42,393 nucleotides of DNA. Origin: a virus. Every line of letters begins with the position of its first letter. Positions within the stretch are counted from its first letter, which is position 1. Below the pieces are notes generated by a model that was not told the DNA's origin, did no database searches, and saw only the letters and a list, made by a program, of their open reading frames with translations. The position numbers were made by a program, and so were the translations under genes. The stretch lies in the UHGV virus genome UHGV-0181047; one strand, given 5' to 3'. This document shows positions 3,121 to 34,599 of this stretch, one piece after another.

Positions 3121-3877
3121 TTTATTTTATGCCATAGTAGGGTGGGTAAACTACCCGGATACATCTACACCGGTGGGAAAAACGAATCTGCGGCATATGG
3201 ATAATGGTATCCTGCAATGTGCTCAGTACATTTTGGGGCTATCTCAGGATAAATTGGAGGTATCAGAAGCAGCAAAATTCATTACAGGCTGGGAAGTGGA
3301 TACCAAGACCTGGATCGTAACGGTAACACATAAGGACGGCACAGTGGAGACGGTAGATTTCCCTATTGAGATGATGCCGACAAAGCTTGACCTTGATGAA
3401 GATGATAATCTCGTGCTGGTCCAGCAGGACGGAACCACAAAGAAGATTAGCTTCCAACGTTTTGTTTATAACGTTTCCAGTACAGCGACGGTTGCCATGA
3501 AGTTGGACGGGACAACCATATCAGCCAATGTAGTAGACGGATCCATTACAGCAAATAAGCTAGAGCCTACATTGCAGAAGACTTTACGGCAGTATATGCT
3601 TGATGCTCAGGCAGCAGCGCAAGAGGCAGAGGCATATAATAAATCATCTATAAGCTATGCTGTGGGTGGTACTGGCTCCAGAACAGGGGAAGATACTGAT
3701 AACAGCAAATATTATAGCGAAAAGGCAAAAGAAGAAGCTGAAAAGGCTGGATCATATGCAAATCTGATATTCCCAGAATTTTATCTGGATACATCAACAG
3801 GGCATTTGATTTGCAAACAAGGAAAAACAGTAACAGTTAAAGTTGAAAATGATCATGTATTAGTGGAGGTGGCATAG
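3107..3877 (+). CDS. Baseplate/tail-fibre protein (BppU-like position)
   Basis: 256 aa between Tal and RBP; NVVDGSITANKL fibre-like motif; Ala/Glu-rich coiled segment. Confidence 0.5.
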   Translation: MKLSDLFYAIVGWVNYPDTSTPVGKTNLRHMDNGILQCAQYILGLSQDKLEVSEAAKFITGWEVDTKTWIVTVTHKDGTVETVDFPIEMMPTKLDLDEDDNLVLVQQDGTTKKISFQRFVYNVSSTATVAMKLDGTTISANVVDGSITANKLEPTLQKTLRQYMLDAQAAAQEAEAYNKSSISYAVGGTGSRTGEDTDNSKYYSEKAKEEAEKAGSYANLIFPEFYLDTSTGHLICKQGKTVTVKVENDHVLVEVA

Positions 3878-4563
3878 TGGCAAGTACAACAGATCTTGGT
3901 AAGTGGATGATTACCAATGGCGGAGAATACAATCCGGAAACAGCATATGAACAACTTACAATGGTAATGTATGAAAACAGTACATATATTACCTTAAAGA
4001 CTGTACAAGGCATCACACCTACAGATGATCATGTTAATTATCAGCTGATGGCCAAAGGTTTTAACCCTACAGCCCTGGCATCAGTGCAGGCAGAGGATAC
4101 CAGCGGAGTGCTGGGAGAAGCAGGAGGCACCGTGTCAGCCCAGGATCTTGTAGACTGGGTAGTAGACCAGGCAGCCAATAAACTGCTCAAATTGACGGAC
4201 CTGGTAAGTGTACAGACCAATGATCCGACCAAGGGTGTATCTGCGGCTCTGGCCTATGCTATGGGCCAGAAGATTGATGAAGTAAATAGTAATTTAGATA
4301 ACCGTATAGGTGTTGGCGAAAAGTTTACATCAGGTACTCTATTAAATATCATAAAGCAAATGTCTGATGGTATACATATGGCATTGGTTAGTGAAACCGT
4401 TTCTGATATTCCTTTTTCAAATACAGAAAACTACATTATTGTATTTAAAGGCACCAGTTACGGTGATCCATATACCAGAATAATGGCATTTCCCATGCCA
4501 AAAAGTTCTGCTCCAAAATGGGGAATGGTCTCATGGGAGAGTAGTAAAATTGTTTGGATCTAA
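3877..4563 (+). CDS. Receptor-binding protein (228 aa) with exchangeable C-terminal head domain
   Basis: GTG 3877 overlapping upstream stop (taGTG), GGAGGTG RBS. Last 88 aa follow the NSNL junction (4285-4296) and are paralogous to the promoterless cassettes downstream. Confidence 0.6.
   Translation: MASTTDLGKWMITNGGEYNPETAYEQLTMVMYENSTYITLKTVQGITPTDDHVNYQLMAKGFNPTALASVQAEDTSGVLGEAGGTVSAQDLVDWVVDQAANKLLKLTDLVSVQTNDPTKGVSAALAYAMGQKIDEVNSNLDNRIGVGEKFTSGTLLNIIKQMSDGIHMALVSETVSDIPFSNTENYIIVFKGTSYGDPYTRIMAFPMPKSSAPKWGMVSWESSKIVWI
4285..4296 (+). repeat. Core site 1 AATAGTAATTTA (NSNL codons) at constant/variable junction of RBP gene
   Basis: Identical 12-mer recurs at 4877-4888 (inverted), 6638-6649 (inverted), 8543-8554 (direct) and degenerate at 9115-9127. 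Confidence 0.7.
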
Positions 4564-4573
4564 AATGATCATT

Positions 4574-4888
4574 TTACTTATGCGTCAACGTAAAATCTCT
4601 ATTGGATATAATGACGCATTCATCCCAAGTACCCATTCCAGTAATTGATAAACGCGCTACCTTTCCCACACTATTGCAAGCCACTTTATATGTAGATCGA
4701 TTTACAAGAGCAGTGACATTTCCAATATTATGAAAAGAATATAGTCCTCCATCAGCTATGACCAAACCGCAAAAATGACTGCTGTCTATTATGGATGTTG
4801 CAAATACTTGTGTGTATTCACCTTCATTGGCAATTTTTTTGATGTATACATTACTGATGCAGCTGCTAACGATTGCTAAATTACTATT
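4574..4888 (-). other. Promoterless RBP C-terminal cassette 2 (inverted), starts at core site, no start codon
   Basis: Minus-strand frame opens with NSNL at 4888-4877 and runs ~100 codons to stop at 4576-4574, tail-to-tail with the expressed RBP across palindrome TAAAATGATCATTTTA. Confidence 0.6.
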
Positions 4889-4921
4889 TACGTCAATTAA
4901 ACTAAGAAAGGAAAATAAAAG

Positions 4922-5332
4922 ATGAATGAAAAATTAAGATTAAAAAATGGGGATGAATTCCCCTTAGTAACTGATGGAGTTACAGAGTATAACGATACTC
5001 TCAAACTGACCTTTCAGTCAGACGAAAAATTAGAAGATTTAATCGCAGATTTTTCAAAAGACTCCAATACAGAGCAGATCAAGGTTATTAATGCAACCGG
5101 AGAAACATTATCAATCTATGACGGTTATACAGTTCTGGGTGATCCAAAAAGCATTAATGAAAATGCTGTTATCACAGCGGCAACATATGACGATGATGGG
5201 GATGTAAAGGCAGAGGCTGTTATAGGAAGAACAGCAACGTTTTCACTTTCAAAGCCAGGAATCACTGAGCAGGTAAAGCAGAACCGCGCAGATATTGATT
5301 TTTTAGCGGTTATGACAGGAAATGACTTATAG
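4922..5332 (+). CDS. Hypothetical protein (XkdW-like position)
   Basis: 136 aa ORF between tail-fibre module and the XkdX-like gene. Confidence 0.45.
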   Translation: MNEKLRLKNGDEFPLVTDGVTEYNDTLKLTFQSDEKLEDLIADFSKDSNTEQIKVINATGETLSIYDGYTVLGDPKSINENAVITAATYDDDGDVKAEAVIGRTATFSLSKPGITEQVKQNRADIDFLAVMTGNDL

Positions 5333-5343
5333 GAGGAAAAAGT

Positions 5344-5475
5344 ATGTTAAGTGTAAAAAATATGGCTGAAAAGTATTATCCTAAATACTGGACCAAAGAG
5401 CGGTTACGGGATTTAGTAGAAGCAAAAAAACTGACAGAAGCAGAGTACTATGAGATCACTGGAGAAAAGTATTAA
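5344..5475 (+). CDS. XkdX-family small phage protein (43 aa)
   Basis: AGGAGG RBS; ...KYWTKERLRDLVEAKKLTEAEYYEITGEKY resembles the XkdX consensus (W..E.L...V....IT..EY..ITG). Confidence 0.55.
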   Translation: MLSVKNMAEKYYPKYWTKERLRDLVEAKKLTEAEYYEITGEKY

Positions 5476-5492
5476 GTTGCACCGGTGCAACT
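5475..5492. repeat. Perfect 18-bp palindrome AGTTGCACCGGTGCAACT (parS-like)
   Basis: Also at 28871-28886 (16/18), 34363-34380 (17/18) and 16667-16683 (one core mismatch). Confidence 0.7.
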
Positions 5493-5508
5493 AAAAGGAG
5501 GACTTTTT

Positions 5509-6228
5509 GTGCGAGATATAACATTATGTCATCCACGGCTGCAGACTTTGGCCCAGGAGTTGATAAAAGTCTGCAACAAAAGTGGATTAAAGATAAAAAT
5601 CGGAGAAACATTTAGGACCAAAGAAGAGCAAGATGATTTGTACGCTCAGGGAAGAACCAAACCGGGAAATGTTGTAACTAATGCGCCAGGATCAAGTTAT
5701 AGCTCTTATCATCAATGGGGGACAGCATTTGATATTTACAGAGCAGACGGAAAAGGTGCGTACTATGACAGTGACGGGTTCTTTTCAAAAGCTGGTGCCA
5801 TAGGAGTAAAACTTGGCCTTGAATGGGGCGGAAACTGGCACAGCATTGTAGATAAGCCACATTTCCAACTTCCAGATTGGGGGAGTGGGACAGCGGGGAT
5901 AAAGAAAATGTATGCTACTCCAGAAGAGTTTATGAAGACGTGGGTCAAGCAGGAAGGCTGGATCCATGACAGTAATGGGTGGTGGTACTGCAACAAAGAT
6001 GGAAGTTACCCAAAAAACAAATGGGGACTGATAAATCATCACTGGTATCTTTTTAACAAAGATGGTTATGCATGCACCAGCTGGCATCGTTGGAATGGAA
6101 GTATTTGCGATCCAGAGGACGGATCTGGAGATTGGTATTATTTCGACCCTACACCCAATGGACAAACAGAATGTGCTTGCTGGAAAAGCAACGACAAGGG
6201 AGCATTAGGAGTGTGGTACGTTGAGTAA
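5509..6228 (+). CDS. Endolysin: peptidase M15 (VanY-like L-Ala-D-Glu / D,D-peptidase) plus cell-wall-binding repeats
   Basis: GTG 5509 after AAAGGAGGA. SYHQWGTAFDI (HxxxxxxD) and DKPHFQ zinc-ligand motifs. C-terminal GWWY/NGxWY choline-binding-type repeats. Confidence 0.8.
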   Translation: MRDITLCHPRLQTLAQELIKVCNKSGLKIKIGETFRTKEEQDDLYAQGRTKPGNVVTNAPGSSYSSYHQWGTAFDIYRADGKGAYYDSDGFFSKAGAIGVKLGLEWGGNWHSIVDKPHFQLPDWGSGTAGIKKMYATPEEFMKTWVKQEGWIHDSNGWWYCNKDGSYPKNKWGLINHHWYLFNKDGYACTSWHRWNGSICDPEDGSGDWYYFDPTPNGQTECACWKSNDKGALGVWYVE

Positions 6229-6370
6229 AAACAAAATGCCACTAACTCAATAGTAAATATGGTTATAACTAAAATAAGGAATAATCCAATAGGAACGCCT
6301 TATAAAATAGAAAGTCTTTCTATGGAATGGGATTCGACAAATTGGCAAAGTGTTGATTTAATATGATCAT

Positions 6371-6649
6371 TTAATCCCAAACGATTTGACTACTGTTCCA
6401 GAAGACCATTCCCCATTTTGGAATCGAGTGTTCAGCCATGGCAAATGCCATTATTCTGGTATATGGATCACCGTAACTGGTGCCTTTAAATACAATAATG
6501 TAGTTTTCTGTATTTGAAAAAGGAATACCAGAAACTTTTTTATCAACCAATGCCATATGTATACCATCAGACATTTGCTTTATGATACTTAATAACTCAC
6601 CTGATGTAAACTTTTCACTAACGCTTATACGATTGTTTAAATTACTATT
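6371..6649 (-). other. Promoterless RBP C-terminal cassette 3 (inverted), mosaic paralogue of expressed head domain
   Basis: Minus-strand frame from core site 6649-6638 (NSNL) to stop 6373-6371. Shares 43-bp and 84-bp blocks of 100% identity with 4347-4389 and 4408-4491. No start codon or RBS. Confidence 0.65.
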
Positions 6650-6672
6650 TCTTAAAATCGGAGGTAAAAAGA

Positions 6673-6861
6673 ATGAAAATTGCAGGAAAAGAATTCAAGG
6701 AAATTTTGGTCATTAAGGATAATGAAGAACTGGTTATAAGCATCACGGATGAGAATGTGATAGAAAAGGAAGGATATAAAGCGATATGTGTGCCGGTGAG
6801 TGATCAGCCTACCGGAAGTAAGTCACACGAAATATCACACGAATGTGATAAGACCGCATAA
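6673..6861 (+). CDS. Hypothetical small protein
   Basis: ATG with GGAGGT RBS, 62 aa. Confidence 0.4.
   Translation: MKIAGKEFKEILVIKDNEELVISITDENVIEKEGYKAICVPVSDQPTGSKSHEISHECDKTA
6820..6850 (+). repeat. Arm-type direct repeats (TCACACG x2) left of attP core
   Basis: aagtcacacgaaatatcacacg; same heptamer repeated 3x at 7020-7050. Confidence 0.45.
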
Positions 6862-6874
6862 ATACGTAATTTAT

Positions 6875-6900
6875 GGCGGGTTCGAATCCCGTCTCGCGCT
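6875..6900 (+). other. tRNA 3'-end fragment (T-arm + acceptor), probable attP core
   Basis: GCGGG-TTCGAAT-CCCGT T-arm followed by 7-nt acceptor strand CTCGCGC and discriminator. No D or anticodon arms upstream. Adjacent to integrase. Confidence 0.5.
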
Positions 6901-6904
6901 TCAA

Positions 6905-6953
6905 TAAAAAACCTTGTAAATACTGGATTTTCTAGCATTTACAAGGTTTTTTC
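6905..6953. terminator. Bidirectional hairpin (15-bp stem) with flanking A/T tracts
   Basis: aaaaaccttgtaaat...atttacaaggtttttt. Confidence 0.4.
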
Positions 6954-7017
6954 ATGCTTTCATAAAAATGAAAAGGACAGTATGCTTCCTTAAAAGGAAA
7001 GTTTTTTACGGTACCTA

Positions 7018-7050
7018 AGTCACACGAAAGTCACACGGAAATATCACACG
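7018..7050 (+). repeat. Arm-type direct repeats (TCACACG x3) right of attP core
   Basis: aagtcacacgaaagtcacacggaaatatcacacg, same orientation as left cluster. Confidence 0.45.
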
Positions 7051-8081
7051 GCAAAATGAGAGAAATGATCAAGGATTTTTTCATTCTGTCGGATCGCTTC
7101 TTCTGTGATCTGGTTGACGTAGACACGGCGCATCATGTAGTTTGAGGACCAGCCCCCACGCTTTTGTATATACAGATCCGGAACGCCCATAGCATGCATG
7201 ATTGAAGCTCCATAGTGCCGCAGATCATGAAAGCGGAAATGGGGAACACCGGATTTTATCAAAGCCTTCCGGAAACGATGAGAAAGTGCTGTAGGTGTAC
7301 AGGTAACCAGAGGACCGTGAAAAGCATGGATCTTTGTGATCACAAAATCCGGAAAAACAACTTTCCGGTAAGACTGGTAAGTCTTAGGTGCCTTGTCGAT
7401 CAACTGGTTGTTGCGGCCATAGACCAGGTTGTGCGAAATGCAGACTGTATTGCCCTGTACATCGGTTGTGGTCAAGGAACACACTTCCCCAAGCCGCAAA
7501 GGGCCAAAGGCCGCCAGAAGGATAGCAATCTCCAGCTCCGGATCATCCTTGACTGTCTGCAGAAGTTTTTTTATATCTGTGTCAGATGGGCAGTACAGAT
7601 CAGTTTGCACTTTTGCGGGAAGTGTGGCAGAGGCCAGTGAGTTTTTGGGGGCAAACATTGCCAGCGCAGGAGTGAAAAGCGCATAGATATTTGCGACTGT
7701 CTTAGGAGACCTGCCTTTAGATATGTCAGATATCCATAGCTGTATATCCTGATCCGTAAGGTCCGCCAGGGCGAAGTTTCCAAAAACTCCGGAAAAATGT
7801 GATTTGAGCAAAGAGTCATATCCTCGGAGAGTGGATCCGGACAAGACTCCTTCTTTTGTCTGGATGTATCTTTCAACAGCATCATGTACGGTCAGGGATG
7901 CTGCAGGTTTGGAAGACTGCAATTTCTTCTGGATCTTCCATTCATCACGGAGAGCTTTAGCTTCAGTCAGAGTGCTGGCGGTAAAGCTCTTGTAGTGCTT
8001 TTTCCCGGTTTCGTCCATGTAGTCAAAGGCCTGGACACGGACAGAGCCGGACGGTAAACGATTTTTCTTCTTTTTGGGCAT
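7044..8081 (-). CDS. int: Site-specific tyrosine integrase
   Basis: 345 aa; R...HDLRH...Y catalytic signature (RFHDLRHYGAS, RVYVNQ) with N-terminal SAM-like core-binding domain; next to attP-like region. Confidence 0.9.
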   Translation of the reverse strand: MPKKKKNRLPSGSVRVQAFDYMDETGKKHYKSFTASTLTEAKALRDEWKIQKKLQSSKPAASLTVHDAVERYIQTKEGVLSGSTLRGYDSLLKSHFSGVFGNFALADLTDQDIQLWISDISKGRSPKTVANIYALFTPALAMFAPKNSLASATLPAKVQTDLYCPSDTDIKKLLQTVKDDPELEIAILLAAFGPLRLGEVCSLTTTDVQGNTVCISHNLVYGRNNQLIDKAPKTYQSYRKVVFPDFVITKIHAFHGPLVTCTPTALSHRFRKALIKSGVPHFRFHDLRHYGASIMHAMGVPDLYIQKRGGWSSNYMMRRVYVNQITEEAIRQNEKILDHFSHFAV

Positions 8082-8212
8082 AATGTATCATCCTCCTGAA
8101 TAAAATTTATATGGGCCACGAAGTTGATAGGGCTTGCATGGCTGCTGGAAGAGTGATACAATATAAACGGTTGGAGTTTGATGTTGTATCACTCAACACA
8201 ATCTTACTAAAA

Positions 8213-8241
8213 GGGTTCCCTGCCGCAAGGGAACCTTTTTT
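8213..8241. terminator. Rho-independent terminator hairpin (both strands T-rich)
   Basis: gggttccctgccgcaagggaacc + tttttt. Confidence 0.5.
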
Positions 8242-8273
8242 ATTGTTTATTTACAAAATATAAAGAGTTTACC

Positions 8274-8302
8274 TTGAAAATTATGGGAAAATACTCTATA
8301 AT
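8274..8302 (+). promoter_or_regulatory. Consensus sigma-A promoter TTGAAA-N17-TATAAT followed by 7-bp inverted repeat
   Basis: Exact 17-nt spacing; aatctgc...gcagatt dyad immediately downstream of -10. Confidence 0.5.
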
Positions 8303-8399
8303 CTGCATTATATAGCAGATTATAGCGCAGAGGGGGTAGGATGTAAAGCGAAAGAATAAAGAAATTTAAAACCGATAGCTTATCGTAGGAGGAATGAAG

Positions 8400-8510
8400 A
8401 TGGATTATCGTGAAAAAATTCTTTACCTTCTGGATAAAACAAAGTCTGAAAAAATACTAAAGAAAGTTTATGATTTTTTGAAATACTTATACATATACGA
8501 AGAAGATTAG
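8400..8510 (+). CDS. Small ORF (36 aa) MDYREKILYLLDKTKSEKILKKVYDFLKYLYIYEED, moron-like
   Basis: AGGAGG RBS 7 nt upstream, own promoter and terminator; below the track's length cut-off. Confidence 0.4.
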   Translation: MDYREKILYLLDKTKSEKILKKVYDFLKYLYIYEED

Positions 8511-8535
8511 CCAGGCAATAAGCCTGGTTTTTTTA
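8509..8535 (+). terminator. Rho-independent terminator
   Basis: gccaggcaataagcctgg + ttttttt. Confidence 0.6.
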
Positions 8536-8542
8536 TGCCAAT

Positions 8543-8845
8543 AATAGTAATTTAATTTCTGTAAAGACGTTTGGAATTGAAGTTACAACCAGATCAACTA
8601 AGGATCCGACATCTGATTTATATATTGGATCATACAAACTTGTTGAATCTCCGTCATATCCCGAAGGAGAAAATATATTAGCAGTAATCCCATATAGTGC
8701 CAGATCGAAATCAGATGCAGGACGTTCAGCTATGGTCGCATATAGAACTAGTGATACACTTATTAGTGTAAATTCACCGAATCAGCCTAACGAGGTATTT
8801 GTTGTAAATATTGCAGTATTTTATTCATTTTCTAATAACAAATGA
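8543..8845 (+). other. Promoterless RBP C-terminal cassette 4 (direct orientation)
   Basis: Begins at core AATAGTAATTTA (NSNL), 100 codons, ends TGA inside palindrome AAATGATCATTT. No start codon. Sequence unrelated to cassettes 1-3. Confidence 0.6.
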
Positions 8846-9303
8846 TCATTTTGTAGCAAATTCTCGCCAGGCTGTCCATGTGTTTGTATCCTCATCTCTA
8901 TATCGTGTGTACAAAGACACTCCATTGGTTGCAATTAAGCATGAGTAATTTCCATTACCATTGTATGGTATATTAATAGCACACACCCAACCTGACGTAG
9001 GTGCATTTTGGGAATTAAACCCAGAATACCAACCTTGTATAGAAATATTATTCCAATCGTTAATATTACCATCTTGAAGATATAAAGGTTGAGGGATCTT
9101 ATCTTGTTTATAGCTTAATTACTATCTTGGACAATACTGTATAAAGGATGACTTCCTTCGGAAGATACTATGCAAAATGAGTAAAGTGTCCTACCAGCTG
9201 GTATATATTTGCTCAGATCAATGCTACCTGTTTTCCCAGTGGTAGAAACAACTTCTCTACCAAAGACTGCTTGTACAGGTAGTAGATCCGTAGTATAAAG
9301 CAA
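8846..9303 (-). pseudogene. Decayed RBP 3' copy / cassette 5 (inverted) with 1-nt deletion in core site
   Basis: Minus strand: ...KLLYTTDLLPVQA...VQDSN then GATAGTAATT-AAGC (core missing one T) shifts frame; downstream 88 codons (SYKQDKIPQPLYL...REFATK) end at TGA in the 8840-8851 palindrome. Confidence 0.5.
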
Positions 9304-9464
9304 TTTCTGTTCTAAATTTTAAAAAAAACACCATCCATTTGACCTTTTTATATTAAAAGTGTTACCGTCACCCGTTTCTTTGAAGTAAATTCGATCATTA
9401 AAATTTTTACATAAGAAAAGAGAACCGTTTTGTTGGCCTCACCAAAACGATTCTCTTTCTTTTT

Positions 9465-9926: not shown

Positions 9927-10139
9927 TTGTCAGATAAGCAAATCATCAAGGAGGTGAGAAGAACGAAAACATTTAAAAGTCTACACATAGATTTAGAAAA
10001 GAAGATATTTCTTCTTGACGGAGAACCATTGCAGCGGACAGTAGGCTTGTATCTGGATTACGAATTTGGAAAATGGACACTGCAGCTGACTCAGGAAGTA
10101 GATTATCAGATGCAGTGCCCAAATGAGATTAAGGAATAA
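9927..10139 (+). CDS. Small early protein, paralogue of 10537..10716
   Basis: KTFKSLHIDLEKKIFLLDGEPLQ vs KEFKSIHIDPEKKIFLLNGQPMK; the ATG of the paralogue is ACG here, so the start is inferred as TTG 9927. Confidence 0.4.
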   Translation: MSDKQIIKEVRRTKTFKSLHIDLEKKIFLLDGEPLQRTVGLYLDYEFGKWTLQLTQEVDYQMQCPNEIKE

Positions 10140-10443
10140 ATTTTGTAACGTATTCTATTACTTCCTTAAGACCATTTACAAAACGGTTTTCCATATAAAT
10201 GATAGCGGAATCGGTTAGAGTGAAATCACCCAAGATATCAGTTTTAACGAGTCCGGCGCGTTGTAATTCAGCTAATGTTGAATCGCAATCAGACGGGGAC
10301 CAGGAAGAAAAGGCATCATTTTTTGAAAAATAATTTTCTTCAAATTTACGGGCCTTTGATTTAGGAACTCCGTTTTTGCGTAGCTGTAAATAGGTTGCAT
10401 AAATACGGCAAATCATTTTGTCAGCATCTTTAGTAAGCTGCAT
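10129..10443 (-). CDS. Hypothetical protein encoded antisense within the early operon
   Basis: 104 aa, AAAGGAG RBS, flanked by the two paralogous plus-strand genes. Confidence 0.5.
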   Translation of the reverse strand: MQLTKDADKMICRIYATYLQLRKNGVPKSKARKFEENYFSKNDAFSSWSPSDCDSTLAELQRAGLVKTDILGDFTLTDSAIIYMENRFVNGLKEVIEYVTKFIP

Positions 10444-10536
10444 AAAGTTCTCCTTTCTTTAAGTACTAGGCTTTGGCGTAGGCCTGCAAGTACAAGTATA
10501 AGGCGAGAAAACAGAAAAGTAAATGGAGAGGTGAAC

Positions 10537-10716
10537 ATGAAAGAATTTAAAAGTATACATATTGATCCAGAGAAGAAAATTTTTCTTTTAAACGGACAGC
10601 CCATGAAAGATGTTTCAGAGCTGCATTTGAGCTTTGAGGATATCTGGAGACTGCAGGTGAAGAGAGAAAACGGATCAGAAGAAAGTGTAAGTACTGACCA
10701 CATAAAAGAGGAGTAA
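10537..10716 (+). CDS. Small early protein, paralogue of 9927..10139
   Basis: GGAGAGGTG RBS, ATG 10537. Confidence 0.5.
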   Translation: MKEFKSIHIDPEKKIFLLNGQPMKDVSELHLSFEDIWRLQVKRENGSEESVSTDHIKEE

Positions 10717-10883
10717 GAAAAGATGAAGAAAAACTTAATAAGTTGCATTATTGCGCTGGCATGTTCCCATGTATTTGTATTGCTGTCGGGCGGGAATATG
10801 TCCAGGTATGAAGAGGCTAGTATGTTTTGTCTTGCCTATTTATGTGTGAACCAGATTTTAAGTTAAAGAAAGGAGCGAAAGGT

Positions 10884-11042
10884 ATGTCGGAAGAAAAGAG
10901 AAATCTCATCAGAGACGTGACCACGAAGATCAACGATCTCCCGGATTTACAGAAGCAGTATGTGGCAGGTCTTATCAATGGCTTGCTGTTGGCGGCAACA
11001 ACAAATAAACCGGAGGAAGAGGCAAAATGCATGCAGAAATAG
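10884..11042 (+). CDS. Hypothetical small protein (52 aa)
   Basis: AAAGGAG RBS. Confidence 0.35.
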   Translation: MSEEKRNLIRDVTTKINDLPDLQKQYVAGLINGLLLAATTNKPEEEAKCMQK

Positions 11043-11838: not shown

Positions 11839-12010
11839 AAGAAAAACCGCACACCGATGAGGCGATGTGCGGCACAACCAAAGGGTTGCCATTACTTTTA
11901 TCTTCATTCAAAGTATACGGCAACCCTTGAAAAAAGTCAAGTGTAATGCGGCAAAAAGCCGCTTTTACAACTTGTTAAGGTTATTATCTTTAGGACAAAA
12001 GGGGGATAAT

Positions 12011-12760
12011 ATGCCGTATTTCACCAAGATAACGGATGCAGGAGTTACCAGGGCAATAGTTGACTACCATGATAGGGCTAGGCCGGAGCCTGGAGGAAAG
12101 AGATGCAAAAAGGTAAAGCCATCTTCAGAGGCACAGAGAAAGAATAACTTAAGGAGGTCAGCGCAGCGCCTGACCATGGACCTCAATGCCAACTTTGACG
12201 AAGAGTGCTGGTATCTTACCTGGAACTATAAGACAGAACTGAGACCAAAAGATAAAGAGGAGATGCTGCAGCAGGTAAAAAAGACCCTGCGTAATCTCAG
12301 AAAAGTATATAAAAAGGCTGGCCTGGAATTGAAATATGTCTGGGTGCCAGAGATAGGGCCGAGAGGAGCCTGCCATATCCACATAGTGGTGAGTGCGATC
12401 ACGATAAATCTGATCCGGCACTGCTGGGAATATGGAGGCATGTATATAGAGCCACTTCGGGATGATCGGAACTACCGGAAGCTGGCAGAGTATTTTGTGA
12501 AGTATTCCGAAAAGACCAGGGAGACATGGGGAGGAAAGCAGGCCGGTAGGTACAACCCTAGTAAAAACCTGGTGCATCCAGAGACAAAGAAGCATCGGAG
12601 AAGAAAAAAGACCTTCTCCGCCGGGGAGATCCATGTACCGGAAGGCTGGTATCTGGATAAGGACAGCGTGCAGGAGTGGATCAACGATCAGGGATATAAA
12701 TATCTGTATTACATCCTGGTGCAGACACCAGAAAGGAGATTGCCAAAATGCAGGACGTGA
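12011..12760 (+). CDS. Rolling-circle replication initiator (HUH endonuclease)
   Basis: ATG 12011 after GGGGGA. HUH motif CHIHIVVS and Tyr motif YFVKYSEK. Terminator-like hairpin gcggcaaaaagccgc upstream. Confidence 0.55.
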   Translation: MPYFTKITDAGVTRAIVDYHDRARPEPGGKRCKKVKPSSEAQRKNNLRRSAQRLTMDLNANFDEECWYLTWNYKTELRPKDKEEMLQQVKKTLRNLRKVYKKAGLELKYVWVPEIGPRGACHIHIVVSAITINLIRHCWEYGGMYIEPLRDDRNYRKLAEYFVKYSEKTRETWGGKQAGRYNPSKNLVHPETKKHRRRKKTFSAGEIHVPEGWYLDKDSVQEWINDQGYKYLYYILVQTPERRLPKCRT

Positions 12761-13194
12761 ATATCTATCTAGCCGGGTCAATACGCGGTCCGGCCCGTAA
12801 AAGCGGAGGCTATGTGTATGTGCTGGAATGCTTCCGGAACGGGAAGGCAGTCACGCTGCAGAAAGGGAAGTGGCTGGATGATACTACAGAGAACCAGCTT
12901 GCACTCCTGGGCCTGGCGGATGCATTGACCAGGCTGAACTGCCCGTGTAACCTGTCGATCTATACAGACTGCCAGCATATCATAAATGCGATGCAAAACC
13001 ACTGGGCCAGACAGTGGCAGAAAAATAACTGGGTAAATGCAAGGGGAAATCAAGTTAAGAATGCGGATCAGTGGAAGGAGGTACTTGAAAGGCTTGATCC
13101 ACATACCTACACCTTTTCCATGGAAAATCATGCGTATACAGAGTGGATGCGTACAGAGCTTGACCGGGAAAAGGAAAAACATAGAAAAAAATAA
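12748..13194 (+). CDS. RNase H-like (RNase HI fold) protein
   Basis: IYTDCQHI...W..QW.KNNWVNARGNQVKNADQWKEVLERL aligns with RNase HI; two catalytic carboxylates appear substituted by Ala. Confidence 0.55.
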   Translation: MQDVNIYLAGSIRGPARKSGGYVYVLECFRNGKAVTLQKGKWLDDTTENQLALLGLADALTRLNCPCNLSIYTDCQHIINAMQNHWARQWQKNNWVNARGNQVKNADQWKEVLERLDPHTYTFSMENHAYTEWMRTELDREKEKHRKK

Positions 13195-13214
13195 CCGAAA
13201 GAAGGAGAAAAGTT

Positions 13215-13700
13215 ATGTTTGAGAAATTTGGAGAATTTGACAGTGTAGAGGAGCTGAACGCAGCTGCAGAGGGCCAGAAGGAAGAGGGAGATATGGAGGC
13301 TTTAGAAGCTCTGGCAGTAGAAAACGGACTGGATCCGGAAGATGCAGAGGATTATATGAACGGAGATGTGGCACAGCTGGCTAATCCACGTCTGGCAGCC
13401 CTTGGAAAACTGAAAATAGAGGCAGAGCATATAAAATGTGCGGAAATCATGGGGGACTGGCTGGACTATATCAAGGATCAGTGTATAGAAAATGAAGAGA
13501 TGCAAAGAGCAGTCCGAAAGAAGGGAAAGAGCCTGGAGGGCTGTATAGCTGAAATTTTAAAGTGGTCTTTTGCCCATCAGCTCCCTGTTGACAGCCGTAT
13601 CACATCTGTTGCAGGTGTGAAGTCGAACCGAGTTACCATAGGGATCCCAGGAATGGCGACCGTAAAGAAGATCATCAACAAATATTACCTGGGAAGGTAG
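13215..13700 (+). CDS. PcfK-like protein
   Basis: KGKSLEGCIAEILKWSFAHQ resembles the PcfK-like core; immediately precedes the PcfJ-like ORF as in many Firmicutes phages. Confidence 0.45.
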   Translation: MFEKFGEFDSVEELNAAAEGQKEEGDMEALEALAVENGLDPEDAEDYMNGDVAQLANPRLAALGKLKIEAEHIKCAEIMGDWLDYIKDQCIENEEMQRAVRKKGKSLEGCIAEILKWSFAHQLPVDSRITSVAGVKSNRVTIGIPGMATVKKIINKYYLGR

Positions 13701-13709
13701 GCGCAGACC

Positions 13710-15833
13710 ATGAAAAAGAAAGCAATAGAGAGGATACCGTATCTTGGACTGGCACAGGTGATCTCCCAAAAGGCTGTGAAGTATGTGGGAGTAACTGCGG
13801 AGAAGGAGATTGCCGGTGAAAATCATCTTTTTGTTGAGGTGTACAAAAACAGGGCAGAGGCTGTAACGGTGCCTGTGGTGCGGATCGTGCTTACGGAAAA
13901 GGACTTTGGTACTTATTTTCCCGACCGGAAAGAATGGTCCGGGGTGAAGCTGGATGAGAGCAGCCTGCCGTGGGAAAAATCGGATGGACAGAGGCGGAAT
14001 TGGAGTGACTGGCAGAAGAAAGAAGAGAGAAATGTACTGCAAAGTCCGGAAGACCTGGAACGCCTGAAAAAACTTTATACGGCACCATATGGCGTATGGA
14101 ATGGACGGTGGTGGGAGTATATCTGTAAACAGCAAAACCACATTACATTTGAGCGGTGGAACAGGGCAGAGGAAAGGAAGCGCAAACGCCGCCAGGATGC
14201 TTTAAATGACCGGATCACTCATACACCGGAGCTTCCGGAAAAGAAGATCCTTAAAAGGGCGGATCTGCTGTACTTCGGAGGCCAGCATTACCTATATTAC
14301 AAAAAATATGGAAGCTGGGCACAGATTGCCTGTAGCAGCTGTGGCGGTGTAACAGAAAGCCGTTGGAAAAGCAGTATGTCCTATGAATCCCAGTTCCAGA
14401 GACATGTAGAAGAACCGATACAGGGAAAACGGGGAACATGTCCGCTGTGTGGCGTAAAGGGCCTGTATAAATGCCAGGGAAAGACAAAAGAGGATCACAG
14501 CCAGAAGATCTATATGTTTCTGGGGCAGAAGTATCGGGAAAAAGGTGTGGTTATCCGTTATCTTGAGGTGGAAAAGACCTACAAGCTTTATGAAGAATGT
14601 GGACAGAATGGCAATGAAATGACCGGTGCAGCAGAGGTATTAAGCGGAGTGGAGATTGCCAGGACATACTTTGAACCAGGGAAAGAACCGCAGACAGATT
14701 TTCATAAGCATAATCCTTATAAAGGGAAAGACTTCTGGGATGACTGCAACTTAGGCGGTAACTATAACATCCGTATAAAAGACGGCCATGTGATGCGTGA
14801 GACCTTTAAGGAATTACAAGGGACTATGTTTCAATACAGTGCCCTGGAAGAGTATTGCAGGCAGTTTAGCAAGGCAAAACCGATAGATTATCTGAAAAGA
14901 TACACAGAGACCCCGCAGCTTGAAATGCTGGTAAAGCTGGGACTGACAAAAATTGTGGATCAGCTTGTATGGGGTGGATTTGGCATTGTAAATGACATAG
15001 ATGCAAAACGCCCAGATGAGTTCCTGGGGATCCGTAAAGAACGGGTAAAACAGTTGATCAAAGCCAAAGGGGATACCACTCTTTTAAACATTATGCAGAT
15101 GGAAAAGCGCATGGGTGCTTCCTGGACCGATATACAGATCAGCCACATGGCAGAGGCTGGGCTGGATCACAGGGGAGAACTGGGAACTATGCTGCAGTAT
15201 ATGGGGATACAGCAGATCCTTAATCGCATTTCAAAGTATGCAGGTTGTGAGTATGACACAGGAAAACGATCATCAACAGAGCTTCTTCGAAGGACGGCTA
15301 TCACCTATATGGATTATCTGGGTATGAGACATACATTGGGCTATGACCTCACAAATACGGTCTATCAGCAGCCCAGGTCCCTGGAAGATGCCCACGCATT
15401 TGTGATAAGGGAAAGAGACAAGAAACAGAAGGAACTGCGTATACAGGAAGTTATGACAAAATTCCCGCAGATACATAACAACTACAGAAAGCTCCGGAGC
15501 AGATACCTGTATGAGGATGATGAGTACCTGATCCGGCCCGCAAGGTCTGCAGCGGAGATCGTGGAAGAGGGAAGAACATTGCATCACTGTGTAGGTGGTA
15601 ACGGGTATCTGGGCAAGCATAATGATGGAGAAAGCTATATCTTGATGCTTCGGGCTAAGAAAGACCCGGAAACACCTTATATCACGGTAGAGATTGAAGG
15701 GAACAGACCGCATATACTGCAGTGGTATGGGGCAAATGATAAAAAGCCAGACAAGGAACATATGCAGGAATGGCTTGACGGATATATTAATAGGCTGAAA
15801 GCGGGAACACAGGAGCTTAAAACAGCCATGTAG
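13710..15833 (+). CDS. PcfJ-like large protein
   Basis: 707 aa; C-terminal HHCVGGNGYLGKHNDGESYILMLR motif; Cys-pair zinc-ribbon segments; gene-order context. Confidence 0.5.
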   Translation: MKKKAIERIPYLGLAQVISQKAVKYVGVTAEKEIAGENHLFVEVYKNRAEAVTVPVVRIVLTEKDFGTYFPDRKEWSGVKLDESSLPWEKSDGQRRNWSDWQKKEERNVLQSPEDLERLKKLYTAPYGVWNGRWWEYICKQQNHITFERWNRAEERKRKRRQDALNDRITHTPELPEKKILKRADLLYFGGQHYLYYKKYGSWAQIACSSCGGVTESRWKSSMSYESQFQRHVEEPIQGKRGTCPLCGVKGLYKCQGKTKEDHSQKIYMFLGQKYREKGVVIRYLEVEKTYKLYEECGQNGNEMTGAAEVLSGVEIARTYFEPGKEPQTDFHKHNPYKGKDFWDDCNLGGNYNIRIKDGHVMRETFKELQGTMFQYSALEEYCRQFSKAKPIDYLKRYTETPQLEMLVKLGLTKIVDQLVWGGFGIVNDIDAKRPDEFLGIRKERVKQLIKAKGDTTLLNIMQMEKRMGASWTDIQISHMAEAGLDHRGELGTMLQYMGIQQILNRISKYAGCEYDTGKRSSTELLRRTAITYMDYLGMRHTLGYDLTNTVYQQPRSLEDAHAFVIRERDKKQKELRIQEVMTKFPQIHNNYRKLRSRYLYEDDEYLIRPARSAAEIVEEGRTLHHCVGGNGYLGKHNDGESYILMLRAKKDPETPYITVEIEGNRPHILQWYGANDKKPDKEHMQEWLDGYINRLKAGTQELKTAM

Positions 15834-15844
15834 GAGGCAGAGAA

Positions 15845-17113
15845 TTGGAATTAGTAGAATACAGCAGTTATAAAGAATTTAAGGCGGAAACAGACCGTGT
15901 TATGACCAACTTAAAAAGGGCTATGGGAGAGACTGCAATCGGGTTTGTGGAAATGGGATATCAGTTAAAATTGGCCAGAGATACGCAAGTTCTTCAGCAG
16001 AGCGGATATACCAGCCTGACAGCTTTTGCAGCAGCAGAGTATGATCTGGATAAATCATGGGTATCAAGGCTTATCGGGATCAATAACAAATTTTCAGAAA
16101 ATGGATACTCCAAAAAGCTCCGACCCCAGTATGAGGGCTTTGGTGTTGCAAAGCTGACACTGATGCTAAGCCTTCCGGATGAGCTGAATGAGGTTCTGAC
16201 ACCGGATCTGAGCAAAGCGGATGTGCAGGCGATCAAGGCAGAGGTGGACGAAGAAAAGAAGACCTCAGATATTGAGCTGTATCTGGAACAGCAGCAGGAA
16301 CCACCGCAAGAACAGGAAAAAACACTGTTGGGAAAGGCAGTCAAGATCATTCTCCATGATGATCCTGAACTGTATGGAGAGATCCACCACATTATCCACA
16401 CAGACCATAGAGCAAAAGACCTGGCAGAGGCTTTCGCACCGGCTGGAACAAAGGTAGATTTTGCAAGAATTCCGGGTGTAGGCCGTCTGGCTGTGTCTTT
16501 TAAGGGGGCAGACAGAGATATCGAAATAGTCAATGTCAGATCTGGAGCTAAGGAAAATGCAGACTGGGCAAGCCTGGAAGAAATCCTGATCAGATTAATG
16601 CCGAATGAAAATGTGAAAAGTGACTGGAAAGAAATTTACGGGGAAGAATATCCAGAAAAAGAGAAAGTTGCACCGGTACAACCAGGGACGGCCAAGATGC
16701 CGCCTAAGCCTACAAAGGAGAAAAGCAAGGTTACAAGGGCCATCACAGAACGGCCAAAGCCATCCCGAAAAACGGAGCCTGTACCAGTAAAGCCACTGCT
16801 TCATGATGTTGAGCCGTCCATACCGGTGCCGGATCCGATCCCAGAGCCGGAAACTCCGGAAGAACCAGTAAAAGATCCGGAAGCAGAAGAGCAGGTTGAA
16901 GGGCAGGACAGCATAGAAAACCACAGAGAGTGGATGCCAGTGCCAGCCCAAGAAGATCATGTCTGCTTAAGTGAAAAAAATGAGATCTTAAACAAGCTGC
17001 ATGAACTTCGGCGATTGATCATGAAAAATGAAAAAGCTGCAGCTTTGAGCCAGGCAGAGGAAGTTACAAGACTGATAGGAGTGTGGGACTGTGAAAAGCA
17101 TCATACAGACTGA
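15845..17113 (+). CDS. Hypothetical protein with Pro/Glu-rich low-complexity linker
   Basis: TTG start after AGGAGG; 422 aa; globular N-terminal domain then P/E/K-rich tract. Confidence 0.5.
   Translation: MELVEYSSYKEFKAETDRVMTNLKRAMGETAIGFVEMGYQLKLARDTQVLQQSGYTSLTAFAAAEYDLDKSWVSRLIGINNKFSENGYSKKLRPQYEGFGVAKLTLMLSLPDELNEVLTPDLSKADVQAIKAEVDEEKKTSDIELYLEQQQEPPQEQEKTLLGKAVKIILHDDPELYGEIHHIIHTDHRAKDLAEAFAPAGTKVDFARIPGVGRLAVSFKGADRDIEIVNVRSGAKENADWASLEEILIRLMPNENVKSDWKEIYGEEYPEKEKVAPVQPGTAKMPPKPTKEKSKVTRAITERPKPSRKTEPVPVKPLLHDVEPSIPVPDPIPEPETPEEPVKDPEAEEQVEGQDSIENHREWMPVPAQEDHVCLSEKNEILNKLHELRRLIMKNEKAAALSQAEEVTRLIGVWDCEKHHTD
16667..16683. repeat. Palindrome variant AGTTGCACCGGTACAAC
   Basis: inside CDS 15845..17113. 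Confidence 0.5.
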
Positions 17114-22366: not shown

Positions 22367-23404
22367 ATGCACGAAGATATAAAGAAAGAGATTATCAACA
22401 ACGTAGTAGTAGCAATGTCTTGTTACATCAGTGATATGGATGTTTTAAATGTCCTGGAAAATATATTGAGTACCGAACTGATCCAGGTCAAAGTGGAGAA
22501 GACAAATTCTCTTCCATCGGAGTGGAAAAGCGAAACTGAAAAAAGAAATCAGTATCTCATCCAGCTTTTTATGATAAAAAAGCGAGGTCTCAGTAAAGAA
22601 ACGATACAAGGATATCTGAGGAGTGTGAAAAGACTGATGCTCATGGTGAGCAAGCCACTGGATCAGGTAGATACACTGGATATTGAATGGTATTTGGCAG
22701 CATATGAAAAGCGGCCAGGGCAGAGGAAAGAAAAGATAGAAAATTCCACATATAACAGCGAGAGGCGCTTTTTGTCAGCTTTTTATACCTGGATGAGGAA
22801 GGCAAAGCTGATAAGCGAAAATCCTGTAGAAGCTACAGAAGCTAAAAAAGTACCGCAAAAGCCTATAGATTACTTTGCCAGAGAAGAAATCATAAAGCTA
22901 AGAGATGCCTGCAGGAATGCCAGGGAAAGGGCAATGGTGGAAGTTTTTAGATCAACTGGTGCCAGAGTAGGAGAAATCGCTGATATACAGCTTGATCAGG
23001 TGGTATTTGATACTGGCAGCATACTGATATGCGGAGAAAAAGGCGGACGATATCGGACTTTGTATTTGGATGATGATGCACGGCATTACTATCAGATCTA
23101 CCAGCAAAGCAGGACAGACAACAGCCCATATCTGTTTACGCAGCTCAGAAAGCCATACGGAAAGTTAGGAAAGAGCTCTTACAGAAACATTTTAAAAACC
23201 ATAGGAAAAAGGGCGGGACTGACAGTAAGGGTATATCCGCATAAAATGAGAAAAACACTGGGCATGGACCTGAAAAACAGAGGGGTAGATATAGGCACGA
23301 TTCAGGAAGTACTTGGACATGCAAGCCCAGCAGTTACAAGTCTCTACTATGCTCAGTCAACCGAAAAGACTTTGAGGGATATAAGAGAAAGAGTTGCAGC
23401 ATAA
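22367..23404 (+). CDS. XerC/XerD-like tyrosine recombinase (second recombinase)
   Basis: 345 aa; ...RVGEIADIQL..., HKMRKTLG, LGHASPAVTSLYY catalytic region; own terminator upstream. Confidence 0.85.
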   Translation: MHEDIKKEIINNVVVAMSCYISDMDVLNVLENILSTELIQVKVEKTNSLPSEWKSETEKRNQYLIQLFMIKKRGLSKETIQGYLRSVKRLMLMVSKPLDQVDTLDIEWYLAAYEKRPGQRKEKIENSTYNSERRFLSAFYTWMRKAKLISENPVEATEAKKVPQKPIDYFAREEIIKLRDACRNARERAMVEVFRSTGARVGEIADIQLDQVVFDTGSILICGEKGGRYRTLYLDDDARHYYQIYQQSRTDNSPYLFTQLRKPYGKLGKSSYRNILKTIGKRAGLTVRVYPHKMRKTLGMDLKNRGVDIGTIQEVLGHASPAVTSLYYAQSTEKTLRDIRERVAA

Positions 23405-28745: not shown

Positions 28746-29186
28746 ATGAGTGGATATGACCCATATTTAGGTGCAATGGGAAGCTTTCAGGCTGACCAGG
28801 CTATGCTGCAGCAGCGCATCAACCAGTTGGAGCAGATGAAGAGACAGCAGTATCAGCAGCCATATCAGCCAGTTGCACCGGTGCAAAACGTCAACTGGAT
28901 ACAGGTGGCTGGACTGGAAGGCGCAAGAAATCAGATCGTGCAGCCAGGAAACACAGCATGGATGATGGATAACAATGCTCCTGTCTTCTATGTGAAGGCA
29001 GTGGACGGCATGGGAAGCGCCACACTTAAAGCGTTCCGCTTCCAGGAAGTACCGCCAGAGTCTCTGACGGCAATACAGACGGTTCCTAACGGGAAAGACG
29101 ATAAATATGTCACACGAGAGGAATTTAATGCCTTTTTGACGCGATTAGGAGAAAAACCAGAAGAAAGGGAGACTGAGCATGAATAA
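28746..29186 (+). CDS. Gln-rich hypothetical protein
   Basis: GGGAGAGGGA RBS; Q-rich N-terminus. Confidence 0.4.
   Translation: MSGYDPYLGAMGSFQADQAMLQQRINQLEQMKRQQYQQPYQPVAPVQNVNWIQVAGLEGARNQIVQPGNTAWMMDNNAPVFYVKAVDGMGSATLKAFRFQEVPPESLTAIQTVPNGKDDKYVTREEFNAFLTRLGEKPEERETEHE
28871..28886. repeat. Palindrome copy AGTTGCACCGGTGCAA
   Basis: inside CDS 28746..29186. Confidence 0.6.
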
Positions 29187-32181: not shown

Positions 32182-32254
32182 GGACCGCTATCTCAGCTGG
32201 AAGAGAAGCCGCCTCATAAGCGGCGGGTCCTGGGTTCGAATCCCAGGTGGTCCA
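32182..32254 (+). tRNA. tRNA with CAU anticodon (elongator Met or Ile2 type)
   Basis: Hand-folded cloverleaf: acceptor GGACCGC/GTGGTCC (one G-U), D-stem TCTC/GAGA with GG loop, anticodon stem GCCGC/GCGGC, loop CTCATAA, T-arm CTGGG-TTCGAAT-CCCAG, discriminator A. Confidence 0.8.
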
Positions 32255-34116: not shown

Positions 34117-34599
34117 ATGGCATATGCTGATTATACATTTTATACAAAAGAGTATTTCGGCAATGCTGTGCCGGAATCTGATTTTCCAAGATGTGCAGAA
34201 CGGGCATCAGACTGGATTGATACGATCACATTTGACCATATCCAGTCGGAAGAACTGGCAGAGGAAGAGAAAGCCATGAAACGGATCAGGAAAGCGGTCT
34301 GCGCCATAGCTGAAATCCTTTATCAGATGGATCTTGCTCAGAGGCAGGCGATAAATATCGCAAGTTGCACCGGTGCAACCGGAAAAGGCGGGATCATAAC
34401 ATCCAGATCTGCCGGAAGTGAGTCGATTTCTTATGCCAGTCCCCAGCAGATGGGAACAGGCGCAAAGGAATGGAGTGCAACCTATTCAGCTGCAGGAGAT
34501 GCACAGAAAACGAATGATTTACTAACAAAGACTGCACTGCCGTATCTGATGGGGATAAGAACCAAAGACGGAATGCCAGTGTTATATGCAGGAGTGTGA
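34117..34599 (+). CDS. Head-tail connector/adaptor-like protein
   Basis: MAYADYTFYTKEYFGNAV... N-terminus typical of gp6/gp15-like adaptors; position after MCP. Confidence 0.45.
   Translation: MAYADYTFYTKEYFGNAVPESDFPRCAERASDWIDTITFDHIQSEELAEEEKAMKRIRKAVCAIAEILYQMDLAQRQAINIASCTGATGKGGIITSRSAGSESISYASPQQMGTGAKEWSATYSAAGDAQKTNDLLTKTALPYLMGIRTKDGMPVLYAGV
34363..34380. repeat. Palindrome copy AGTTGCACCGGTGCAACC
   Basis: inside connector-like CDS, different reading frame from the 28871 copy. Confidence 0.6.

Follow-up and report, generated by a model that had tools for sequence, protein, structure and literature searches.

Introduction

In the R64 shufflon, the tyrosine recombinase Rci and its sfx sites, short and asymmetric, with a 12-bp arm and a conserved 7-bp spacer, bring about multiple inversions that swap the C-termini of pilV, and the Mu G, P1 C and p15B Min systems are served by the serine invertases Gin, Cin and Min, respectively. 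In the latter group, a constant N-terminus is combined with alternative C-termini that lie tail to tail in the invertible segment (PMC6109161). Prophages of Bifidobacterium and Eggerthella carry the closest described system, the Rin shufflon (Mavrich et al., 2018, PMC6109161; PMC8778435). In addition, tRNA-Met-integrated bifidophages harbor a second locus where a structural gene has its 3' end exchanged at a short repeat through a simple flip of about 500 bp; this locus has no flanking recombinase, and its authors proposed an invertase acting in trans (PMC6109161). Here we analyze the virus genome UHGV-0181047, a stretch of 42,393 nucleotides referred to below as the window, in which the gene for a 228-amino-acid tail receptor-binding-type protein (RBP; 3877-4563, + strand, from the list of open reading frames, ORFs) is accompanied by silent cassettes for alternative C-terminal domains, or heads. 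The locus is probably an orphan and partly decayed member of a family of tyrosine-recombinase shufflons that diversify tail-protein heads in human-gut phages, and a flip between two of its sites would be catalyzed by an enzyme from elsewhere. A first-pass annotation had set it apart from the serine-invertase segments of Mu, P1 and p15B; the Rin shufflons constitute a precedent for it (PMC6109161, PMC8778435).

As in Rin, C-terminal cassettes without promoters and dissimilar to each other (Rv in that system) come after a constant RBP N-terminus (Rc), and a repeat of 11-12 bp precedes each cassette and is also present inside the expressed gene. Inversion isomers with breakpoints at the repeats exist both in Rin and in relatives of the window. 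The Rin enzyme, like its counterparts in sister loci of the window (L050, L010, L145 and L336-L366), is an armless tyrosine recombinase and not the phage integrase, and in both cases the recombinase gene lies inside the array. The systems differ in the site itself (AATAGTAATTTA in the window, TTCCCTAACCC in Rin), in the hosts, which appear to be of Firmicutes type for the window family and are Actinobacteria for Rin, and in the disposition of the cassettes, which are tail to tail with a conserved palindrome in the window and in tandem in Rin. Unlike that of Rin, the array of the window neither contains nor adjoins a dedicated recombinase gene, and its modules are split by lysis genes, attP and the integrase gene. 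The likeness would be one of architecture and logic and, to judge from the sequence, the locus is a member of a Rin-like family of tyrosine-recombinase shufflons, not of the Gin/Cin/Min type.

The other systems share fewer traits with this locus. With respect to the second locus of bifidophages, the window contains extra dispersed cassettes, and a recombinase family can be named from the sister loci. Four-site relatives of the window (L002, L003, L314, L336) resemble R64 in that any cassette would in principle be reachable by successive inversions, although R64 varies a conjugative pilus adhesin and the window a phage tail protein, and the one-sided conservation of sfx-type sites is absent here, core conservation in the window family being roughly symmetric. 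The logic of splicing by inversion is shared with Mu G, but the recombinase superfamily is different, the conserved site is about 14 bp with unconserved flanks, instead of the 26-bp dyad with a 2-bp central overlap and a Fis-dependent enhancer that serine invertases use, and no assembly genes equivalent to U/U' are inverted along with the cassettes.

Core sites and cassettes in the window

The core, AATAGTAATTTA, is present in four exact copies, at 4285-4296 (+, site a), 4877-4888 (-, site b), 6638-6649 (-, site c) and 8543-8554 (+, site d); 0.29 would be expected by chance at up to one mismatch, and none of 100 shuffles gave four. Each copy opens a frame of 92-104 codons, so that the array of silent cassettes sharing a 12-bp core reported in the first-pass annotation is real. 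Site a is located within the expressed gene, where it encodes NSNL, and follows the constant N-terminal region (3877-4284, +; residues 1-136, with weak PHROG tail-fibre matches). The expressed head, cassette A, extends from there to the end of the gene (4285-4563, +; 92 codons plus stop). The silent cassettes B (4574-4888, -; 104 codons), C (6371-6649, -; 92 codons) and D (8543-8845, +; 100 codons) begin at cores b, c and d, the last in direct orientation to a. None of the silent cassettes carries the constant region, in agreement with the earlier description, and a hairpin resembling an intrinsic terminator (8509-8529, +) stands immediately upstream of D.

Other elements of that description need to be modified. 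The cassettes had been considered copies of the last ~90-100 codons of the RBP gene, which holds for their position but not for their sequence, since B, D, E and F are unrelated to A. Cassette C is a paralogue of A, with which it forms an inverted repeat (87% nucleotide identity over 281 nucleotides). Also, not every cassette starts at the same 12-bp core: B, C and D do, but cassette E (8846-9123, -; ~90 codons) starts at a broken core, GATAGTAATT-AAGC, which has a 1-bp deletion (a T) relative to cassettes with 91-93% nucleotide identity in L149, L336 and L346, where the intact core reads TATAGTGATTTAAGC. The truncated fragment F (~9115-9320, -; ~66 codons) begins with only half a core, AATTTAGA, and ends in a stop codon that falls within the E core; no homologues of F were found. 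The region 8846..9303 (-), proposed as one decayed cassette, is decayed indeed but consists of these two units.

The cassettes are arranged as three tail-to-tail pairs (modules M1 to M3), each joined by a palindrome of the AAATGATCATTT type, at 4561-4576 (M1, TAAAATGATCATTTTA), 6359-6372 and 8840-8852. The left half of M2 could correspond to a decayed stretch at 6249-6372 (+), with a core-like AATAGTAAATAT at 6249-6260 (9 of 12 positions), a truncated frame and, at 6359-6372, a conserved tail junction, TAATATGATCATTT, like those repeated elsewhere in the window; a homologue search with this stretch was empty, and we assign it as a half-module only tentatively. The palindrome, as TAAAATGATCATTTTA or variants of it, is also found in modules of L001-L003, L010, L028, L309 and L312 and of the myophage L145. 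Single cassettes re-assort between pairs, families F01, F04, F08, F11 and F17 being found with different partners, which would be impossible by core inversion alone and suggests that the tail palindrome may be a second exchange point. The outer arms of the palindrome, TAAA/TTTA, resemble those of the core.

As previously noted, the array is interleaved with a VanY/M15 endolysin gene (5485-6228, +), the attP region (~6800-7040), with arm-type repeats AAGTCACACGAAA and a tRNA-like 3' end at 6880-6905, and the gene for an arm-type tyrosine integrase (7044-8081, -). The segment between the first two modules (4922-6228, +) contains p136, an XkdX-like ORF and the endolysin gene, and is situated where embedded-type shufflons place their recombinase gene. 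Regarding the nature of the heads, A-F gave no match in Pfam, and an AlphaFold2 model of the full RBP with 37 homologues had a mean predicted local distance difference test score of 42.5 and was unusable. Heads of some relatives are H-type lectin or Gp53-like_C domains according to Pfam.

The core as an exchange point in related phages

A protein search with the 228-amino-acid sequence yielded 574 homologue clusters. The top five share head A, and the others match only residues 1 to ~140 (61-67% query coverage) and then diverge completely. Around 60 loci, designated here with L numbers, were gathered from IMG/VR and human gut metagenomes by N-terminal similarity, and relatives were compared as stretches of +/-10 kb. 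A junction of the form AAT-AG(T/C)-(A/G)AT-TTA is present in nearly all of them, with an inverted copy of the core 480-900 bp downstream, and the two copies bracket a tail-to-tail pair of cassettes; 67 head families could be distinguished. The search for the NSNL junction with other heads that the first-pass annotation had recommended thus gave the same core followed by different heads, while the exact junction of the window had no match in IMG/VR.

The core is conserved over about 14 bp and conservation drops to background within 2 nucleotides on either side, including the non-coding side of silent sites. Among 90 distinct sites, the leucine codon is TTA in 81, against a genome-wide usage of 15%, serine is never encoded by TCN and asparagine never by AAC, although the site search, with up to two mismatches allowed, adds some ascertainment bias to these codon counts. 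The nearly invariant codon choice and the sharp edges indicate that the core is conserved at the DNA level, and the earlier proposal of a true recombination site at the constant/variable boundary of a receptor-binding-type tail protein is borne out. A third, lone core-like site, AATAGTGATTTA, was observed exactly at the integrase stop codon in L015 (11730-11741) and also in L014, L017, L053 and L060. In L015, this third site and site b bracket attP in inverted orientation, and sites c and d of the window likewise bracket attP and the integrase gene.

DNA exchange at the cores could be followed directly between close relatives. Flip-flop isomers were identified in three lineages: L004, L024, L032 and L033 versus L030; L015, L017 and L059 versus L053 and L058; and L012 versus L043. 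For instance, the left flanks of L015 and L053 are 100% identical up to 10378, an inversion covers 10362-11024, and the match of the right flank starts again at 11009. Breakpoints are on the cores, the inversions are reciprocal and both cassettes are kept, and between phages with different flanks the inverted segments are 99.2-99.7% identical in opposite orientation. Replacement was observed as well. Up to 4296, the last base of the core, L310 and L311 match the window with 99.6-99.9% identity (99.8% for L310), and they then continue with another head, and in L309 homology ends at 4302 and restarts at 4878, within core b, which indicates that the whole module between both cores has been replaced.

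The cassettes that are silent in the window are used by other phages, each fused to the same N-terminus, as anticipated for alternative heads. L314 expresses cassette B as P0085 (93.5% nucleotide identity), inverted with respect to the window, and L003 carries B as a silent cassette. C is 98% identical in nucleotides to the expressed head of L014, and D is expressed as P0137 in L312 (89% nucleotide identity, including the tail junction), with 14 further silent homologue clusters. These silent frames can therefore be regarded as real heads.

Sister loci with an embedded recombinase

The homologues of D and E led to the myophage prophages L145, L146 and L149. L145 and L146 contain a compact shufflon that consists of a tail-fibre gene, four cassettes and a gene for a 331-amino-acid tyrosine recombinase, and L147 and L148 are inversion isomers of the L145 locus. 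The same arrangement is found in L010, where a myophage fibre ends in LNSNL and an A-like cassette is silent beside the recombinase gene, and in L050, a siphophage with the RBP family of the window itself; a dedicated recombinase is also present within the array of L336-L366. L149 lacks the recombinase gene, the fibre gene and the remaining cassettes and, at 10001-10480, has an E-like cassette joined at ...SLRSNL to the first ~61 residues of a baseplate wedge-like protein; judging from its sequence, this is possibly a deletion of about 3.5 kb ending at the core, produced by mis-recombination.

A scan for embedded recombinases in IMG/VR covered at least 80 loci. Among the matches listed, most loci whose recombinase is at least 53% identical to that of L145 carry [AT]ATAGT[GA]AT[TA]T[AG] sites beside the gene. 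Complete loci have one site on each side, ~65 bp upstream and ~105 bp downstream of the recombinase gene, each followed by a frame of 80-200 codons, and several use exactly TATAGTAATTTA. Since the same type of core flanks the embedded recombinases, that of the window can be viewed as the cognate site type of an enzyme family that the array itself lacks.

Candidate enzymes

No embedded recombinase or remnant of one was found in the array (3.8-9.4 kb). The window does encode elsewhere an armless Xer-like tyrosine recombinase (22367-23404, +), overlooked in the first-pass annotation, which is a candidate for a trans-acting invertase. The protein matches Pfam Phage_integrase and SAM_1/SAM_4, XerA/XerD-like families of NCBIfam below the cut-off, and XerA/XerD structures in the PDB. 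It aligns over its full length with the embedded enzymes (28-31% identity, E values of 1e-39 to 1e-44), including an N-terminal extension of ~65 residues; the embedded enzymes share only 33% identity with each other. A six-frame search showed that this is their sole homologue in the window. Homologues 61-80% identical to it are present in at least 10 of 21 IMG/VR contigs with the RBP family of the window, among the matches listed, and for 3 more of the 21 a homologue is located on another contig of the same sample; this co-occurrence is only partly informative, being based on the best 80 matches and on mosaic genomes. A 26-nucleotide inverted repeat (22549/24152) that spans the Xer-like gene and terS was discarded as a chance occurrence, as it is not kept in 80%-identical relatives.

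The first-pass annotation had also stated that no serine invertase of the Gin/Cin/Min class is present, and there was no resolvase-family Pfam match among ~30 ORFs scanned, which comprised the locus and the larger genes, with some small ORFs outside the scan. A diversity-generating retroelement was rejected as well, because no reverse transcriptase domain was detected among the scanned ORFs and the variants are unrelated whole domains, not adenine-mutagenized repeats. Another gene that had escaped notice encodes an IS110-family protein of 408 amino acids (41696-42393 plus 1-529, -, wrapping the window ends; DEDD_Tnp_IS110 and Transposase_20 domains). The insertion separates the DUF6711 tail gene from the Peptidase_S74 fibre gene, two genes ahead of the RBP gene, and is absent from all the relatives examined (L001-L017, L310); L310 is 99.9% identical across the empty site, with DUF6711 abutting the fibre gene. 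This distribution suggests a very recent passenger insertion into the structural operon.

Site logic and alternative explanations

According to the explanation that we consider probable, the crossover site would be a sequence of 12-14 bp, (t)A-AATAGTAATTTA-(g), with a weak dyad (TAAAT-AGTA-ATTTA), found both at the constant/variable junction, where it is read in frame as NSNL, and where each promoterless cassette begins. Recombination between a and b would flip 4297-4876 (580 bp) and swap head A for B on the constant N-terminus. Recombination between a and c would allow expression of C but would invert p136, the XkdX-like ORF and the endolysin gene, and this route would have no way back, since the partner site g near 6249 is decayed; in the roughly two dozen loci where the lysis genes could be located, they always have the same direction as the RBP gene. 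Sites a and d are in direct orientation, and their recombination would delete the lysis genes, attP and the integrase gene. D, together with E (broken core) and F (truncated), would be out of reach by inversion in this genome, and in the prophage state M3 would be at the opposite end from the RBP gene. In four-site relatives (L002, L003, L314), on the other hand, a x d followed by b x c would swap modules and restore the lysis genes.

Site orientation thus points to A<->B as the only clean flip in this phage. The programmed variation system that had been proposed agrees with the precise inversion isomers of relatives, but operation of the whole 5-kb array as one multi-inversion system is not supported, as only one exchange would proceed cleanly. 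Cassettes C, D, E and F could be leftovers of, or a reservoir from, a larger shufflon of four to six sites, and the distal ones could re-enter circulation via core-to-core exchange with other phage genomes. The likeliest enzyme source would be the phage's own Xer-like recombinase or the shufflon recombinase of a co-resident prophage, which we regard as equally mechanistic alternatives; the sharing of cassettes between phage types implies that those types meet.

A number of observations weigh against an array that is still active in this phage. The inversion isomers belong to the three related lineages and to L145 versus L147/L148, and none was seen for this exact phage: four near-identical contigs, from four samples, all show A expressed (two of the four break within the A/C repeat), and a collection of 15 billion sequences lacks the predicted N+B, N+C and N+D proteins, contig and chimeric-protein checks being weak proxies for heterogeneity at the read level. 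The decay of two of the six sites suggests that selection on the whole array has been relaxed, and the ratio of nonsynonymous to synonymous substitution rates in silent cassettes (0.15-0.83) is only moderately below 1, with small counts, and is not decisive. As for the Xer-like enzyme, its gene is 18 kb away from the array, without a core nearby, and no core was found near the Xer-like genes in the 80 loci listed. A homologue with 53% identity is encoded by the Clostridium scindens phage phiCs5676-1, whose genome has no detectable RBP inverton. Recombinases that are closer to the embedded ones (32-43% identity, L367 onward) mostly lack the core among the matches listed, so that 28-31% identity does not establish a shared site specificity. 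Four long RBP-bearing contigs without an Xer-like homologue among the matches listed are uninformative in this respect.

Some of these facts would be expected if the array were a fossil, in which the embedded recombinase of an ancestor has been lost, switching has ceased and head diversity arises through horizontal exchange or ordinary recombination. The lack of a recombinase or remnant in the array, the decay of cores g and e, the truncation of F, the single arrangement of the four contigs and the failure to find chimeric proteins fit this explanation, as do L309 and L310, whose heads differ by replacement with cassettes missing from this genome. We consider it rather unlikely, given that recombinase-less loci of the L004 and L015 types and L012/L043 still invert precisely at the cores, at 1-4% divergence, that four cores are perfect and the B, C and D frames intact, and that the second module remains complete, its cores perfect, in L002, L003 and L314. 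It is also conceivable, if unlikely, that the core is the docking site of a cassette-exchange network between phages and that the dispersed modules are working junctions and not debris. N-terminally extended Xer-like recombinases, encoded inside or outside arrays, would then flip segments within a genome and swap heads between unrelated co-resident phages (myophage fibres and siphophage RBPs); whole modules might also be swapped, carrying the lysis genes between b and c or attP-int between c and d, and the AAATGATCATTT palindrome would be a second, symmetric site that re-assorts single cassettes.

Dispensing with a site-specific recombinase altogether, the array might constitute a donor set from which the recombination machinery of the host or of the phage copies or exchanges cassettes into the expression site, by gene conversion or homologous recombination anchored at the core and the AAATGATCATTT palindrome. 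This would account for the re-assortment of single cassettes between pairs (F01, F04, F08, F11, F17), for the conserved motif at the tail junctions and for the 281-bp, 87% identical A/C inverted repeat, but it is very unlikely in view of anchors of 12-16 bp, which are very short for RecA-type exchange, of isomers that are reciprocal inversions with both cassettes retained, and of the presence of the same core beside dedicated tyrosine recombinase genes in sister loci. Still less credible is that the arm-type integrase also recombines the cores. A palindrome on the attP side, cATAAATAcGTAATTTAtg (6862-6881), adjacent to the tRNA-like segment, matches gTAAATA-GTAATTTAg at 14 of 15 positions with one indel, and in L014, L015 and L017 the integrase gene is bordered at its 3' end by a third core-like site. 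However, attP and core do not co-vary: Group II phages, with a related integrase, have CATAAAACCGTTGTATTTTAC in attP but AATAGCAATTTA as core; L015, with a 39%-identical integrase and a different tRNA-type attP, has the same core; and L003 has perfect cores and an unrelated integrase of 423 amino acids. Moreover, the integrase has no significant similarity to the embedded shufflon enzymes, and its attP/core likeness is probably due to chance.

The IS110-family gene deserves mention because Piv of Moraxella, a relative of IS110/IS492, inverts pilin gene segments, and because of its position two genes upstream of the RBP gene. Its participation is nevertheless close to inconceivable, since no relative carries it, neither the 99.9%-identical L310 nor those that show inversions; while Piv/IS110 systems have a conserved, linked DEDD recombinase, this gene is confined to the immediate lineage of the window.

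Inversion may continue in this phage, and the alternative heads may set its host range, which is the main practical limit of phages in gut ecology and therapy. A single short site, together with a single recombinase family, appears to underlie a large and interchangeable set of heads that spans contractile- and non-contractile-tailed gut phages. If so, tyrosine-recombinase shufflons would have a much wider distribution than that suggested by the two Actinobacteria cases of the searchable literature. If such arrays still switch, phase variation of host range could depend on a distant gene or on the enzyme of another resident prophage, and annotation pipelines and inverton finders that need an adjacent invertase would miss them. 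From a practical point of view, the NSNL junction and the cassette boundaries could offer a natural, tested splice point to engineer heads onto the tail protein.

Genome context and other observations

The window represents a temperate siphophage-like virus whose genome (~42.4 kb, 43% G+C) is complete and circularly permuted, with identical or near-identical contigs in four human-gut-type metagenome assemblies (source samples ERZ19650192, ERZ27289082, ERZ28620591 and SRR7658677). A megablast of positions 3-10 kb against GenBank phages gave no match. The structural region includes the tape measure gene (38297-41122), the Peptidase_S74 fibre gene (825-2936) and the genes for DUF6711 and a 256-amino-acid protein, and the remaining genes correspond to a cI-like repressor, a Rep/RNase H/PcfJ replication block, terS/terL, portal and capsid. 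Genomes are mosaic, and among the matches listed the TerL type of the window is common only to L002 and L003.

With respect to integration, ARAGORN found no tRNA at attP, and scans of genome contigs for host and attB with the RBP N-terminus and the tRNA-like 25-mer gave no match. L043 is an integrated prophage whose homology to the phage-form attP stops at 12506 (region 12370-13450), a position preceded by a tRNA-like 3' end (...ACGGGTCCGATTCCCGTCAGCAGCTT) and followed by bacterial genes (PEMT-like, GH3, GGDEF-HD, AzlC); from this prophage junction, only the right limit of the identity block can be read. A tRNA-Met (CAT) gene is located at 32182-32254, within the head-morphogenesis block.

The replication module (11867-15833) encodes a rolling-circle-type Rep (REP_ORF2-G2P), an RNase H and a PcfJ-like protein of 707 amino acids, and in phiCs5676-1 a Rep/RNase H/PcfJ-like trio is likewise found ahead of the Xer-like gene. 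Finally, a palindrome, GTTGCACCGGTGCAAC, is present four times in the window (5476-5492, 16666-16682, 28869-28886 and 34363-34382), the copy at 5476-5492 being directly 5' of the endolysin ribosome-binding site. The palindrome may act as an operator or a terminator, or represent a motif of the methylation/restriction type.

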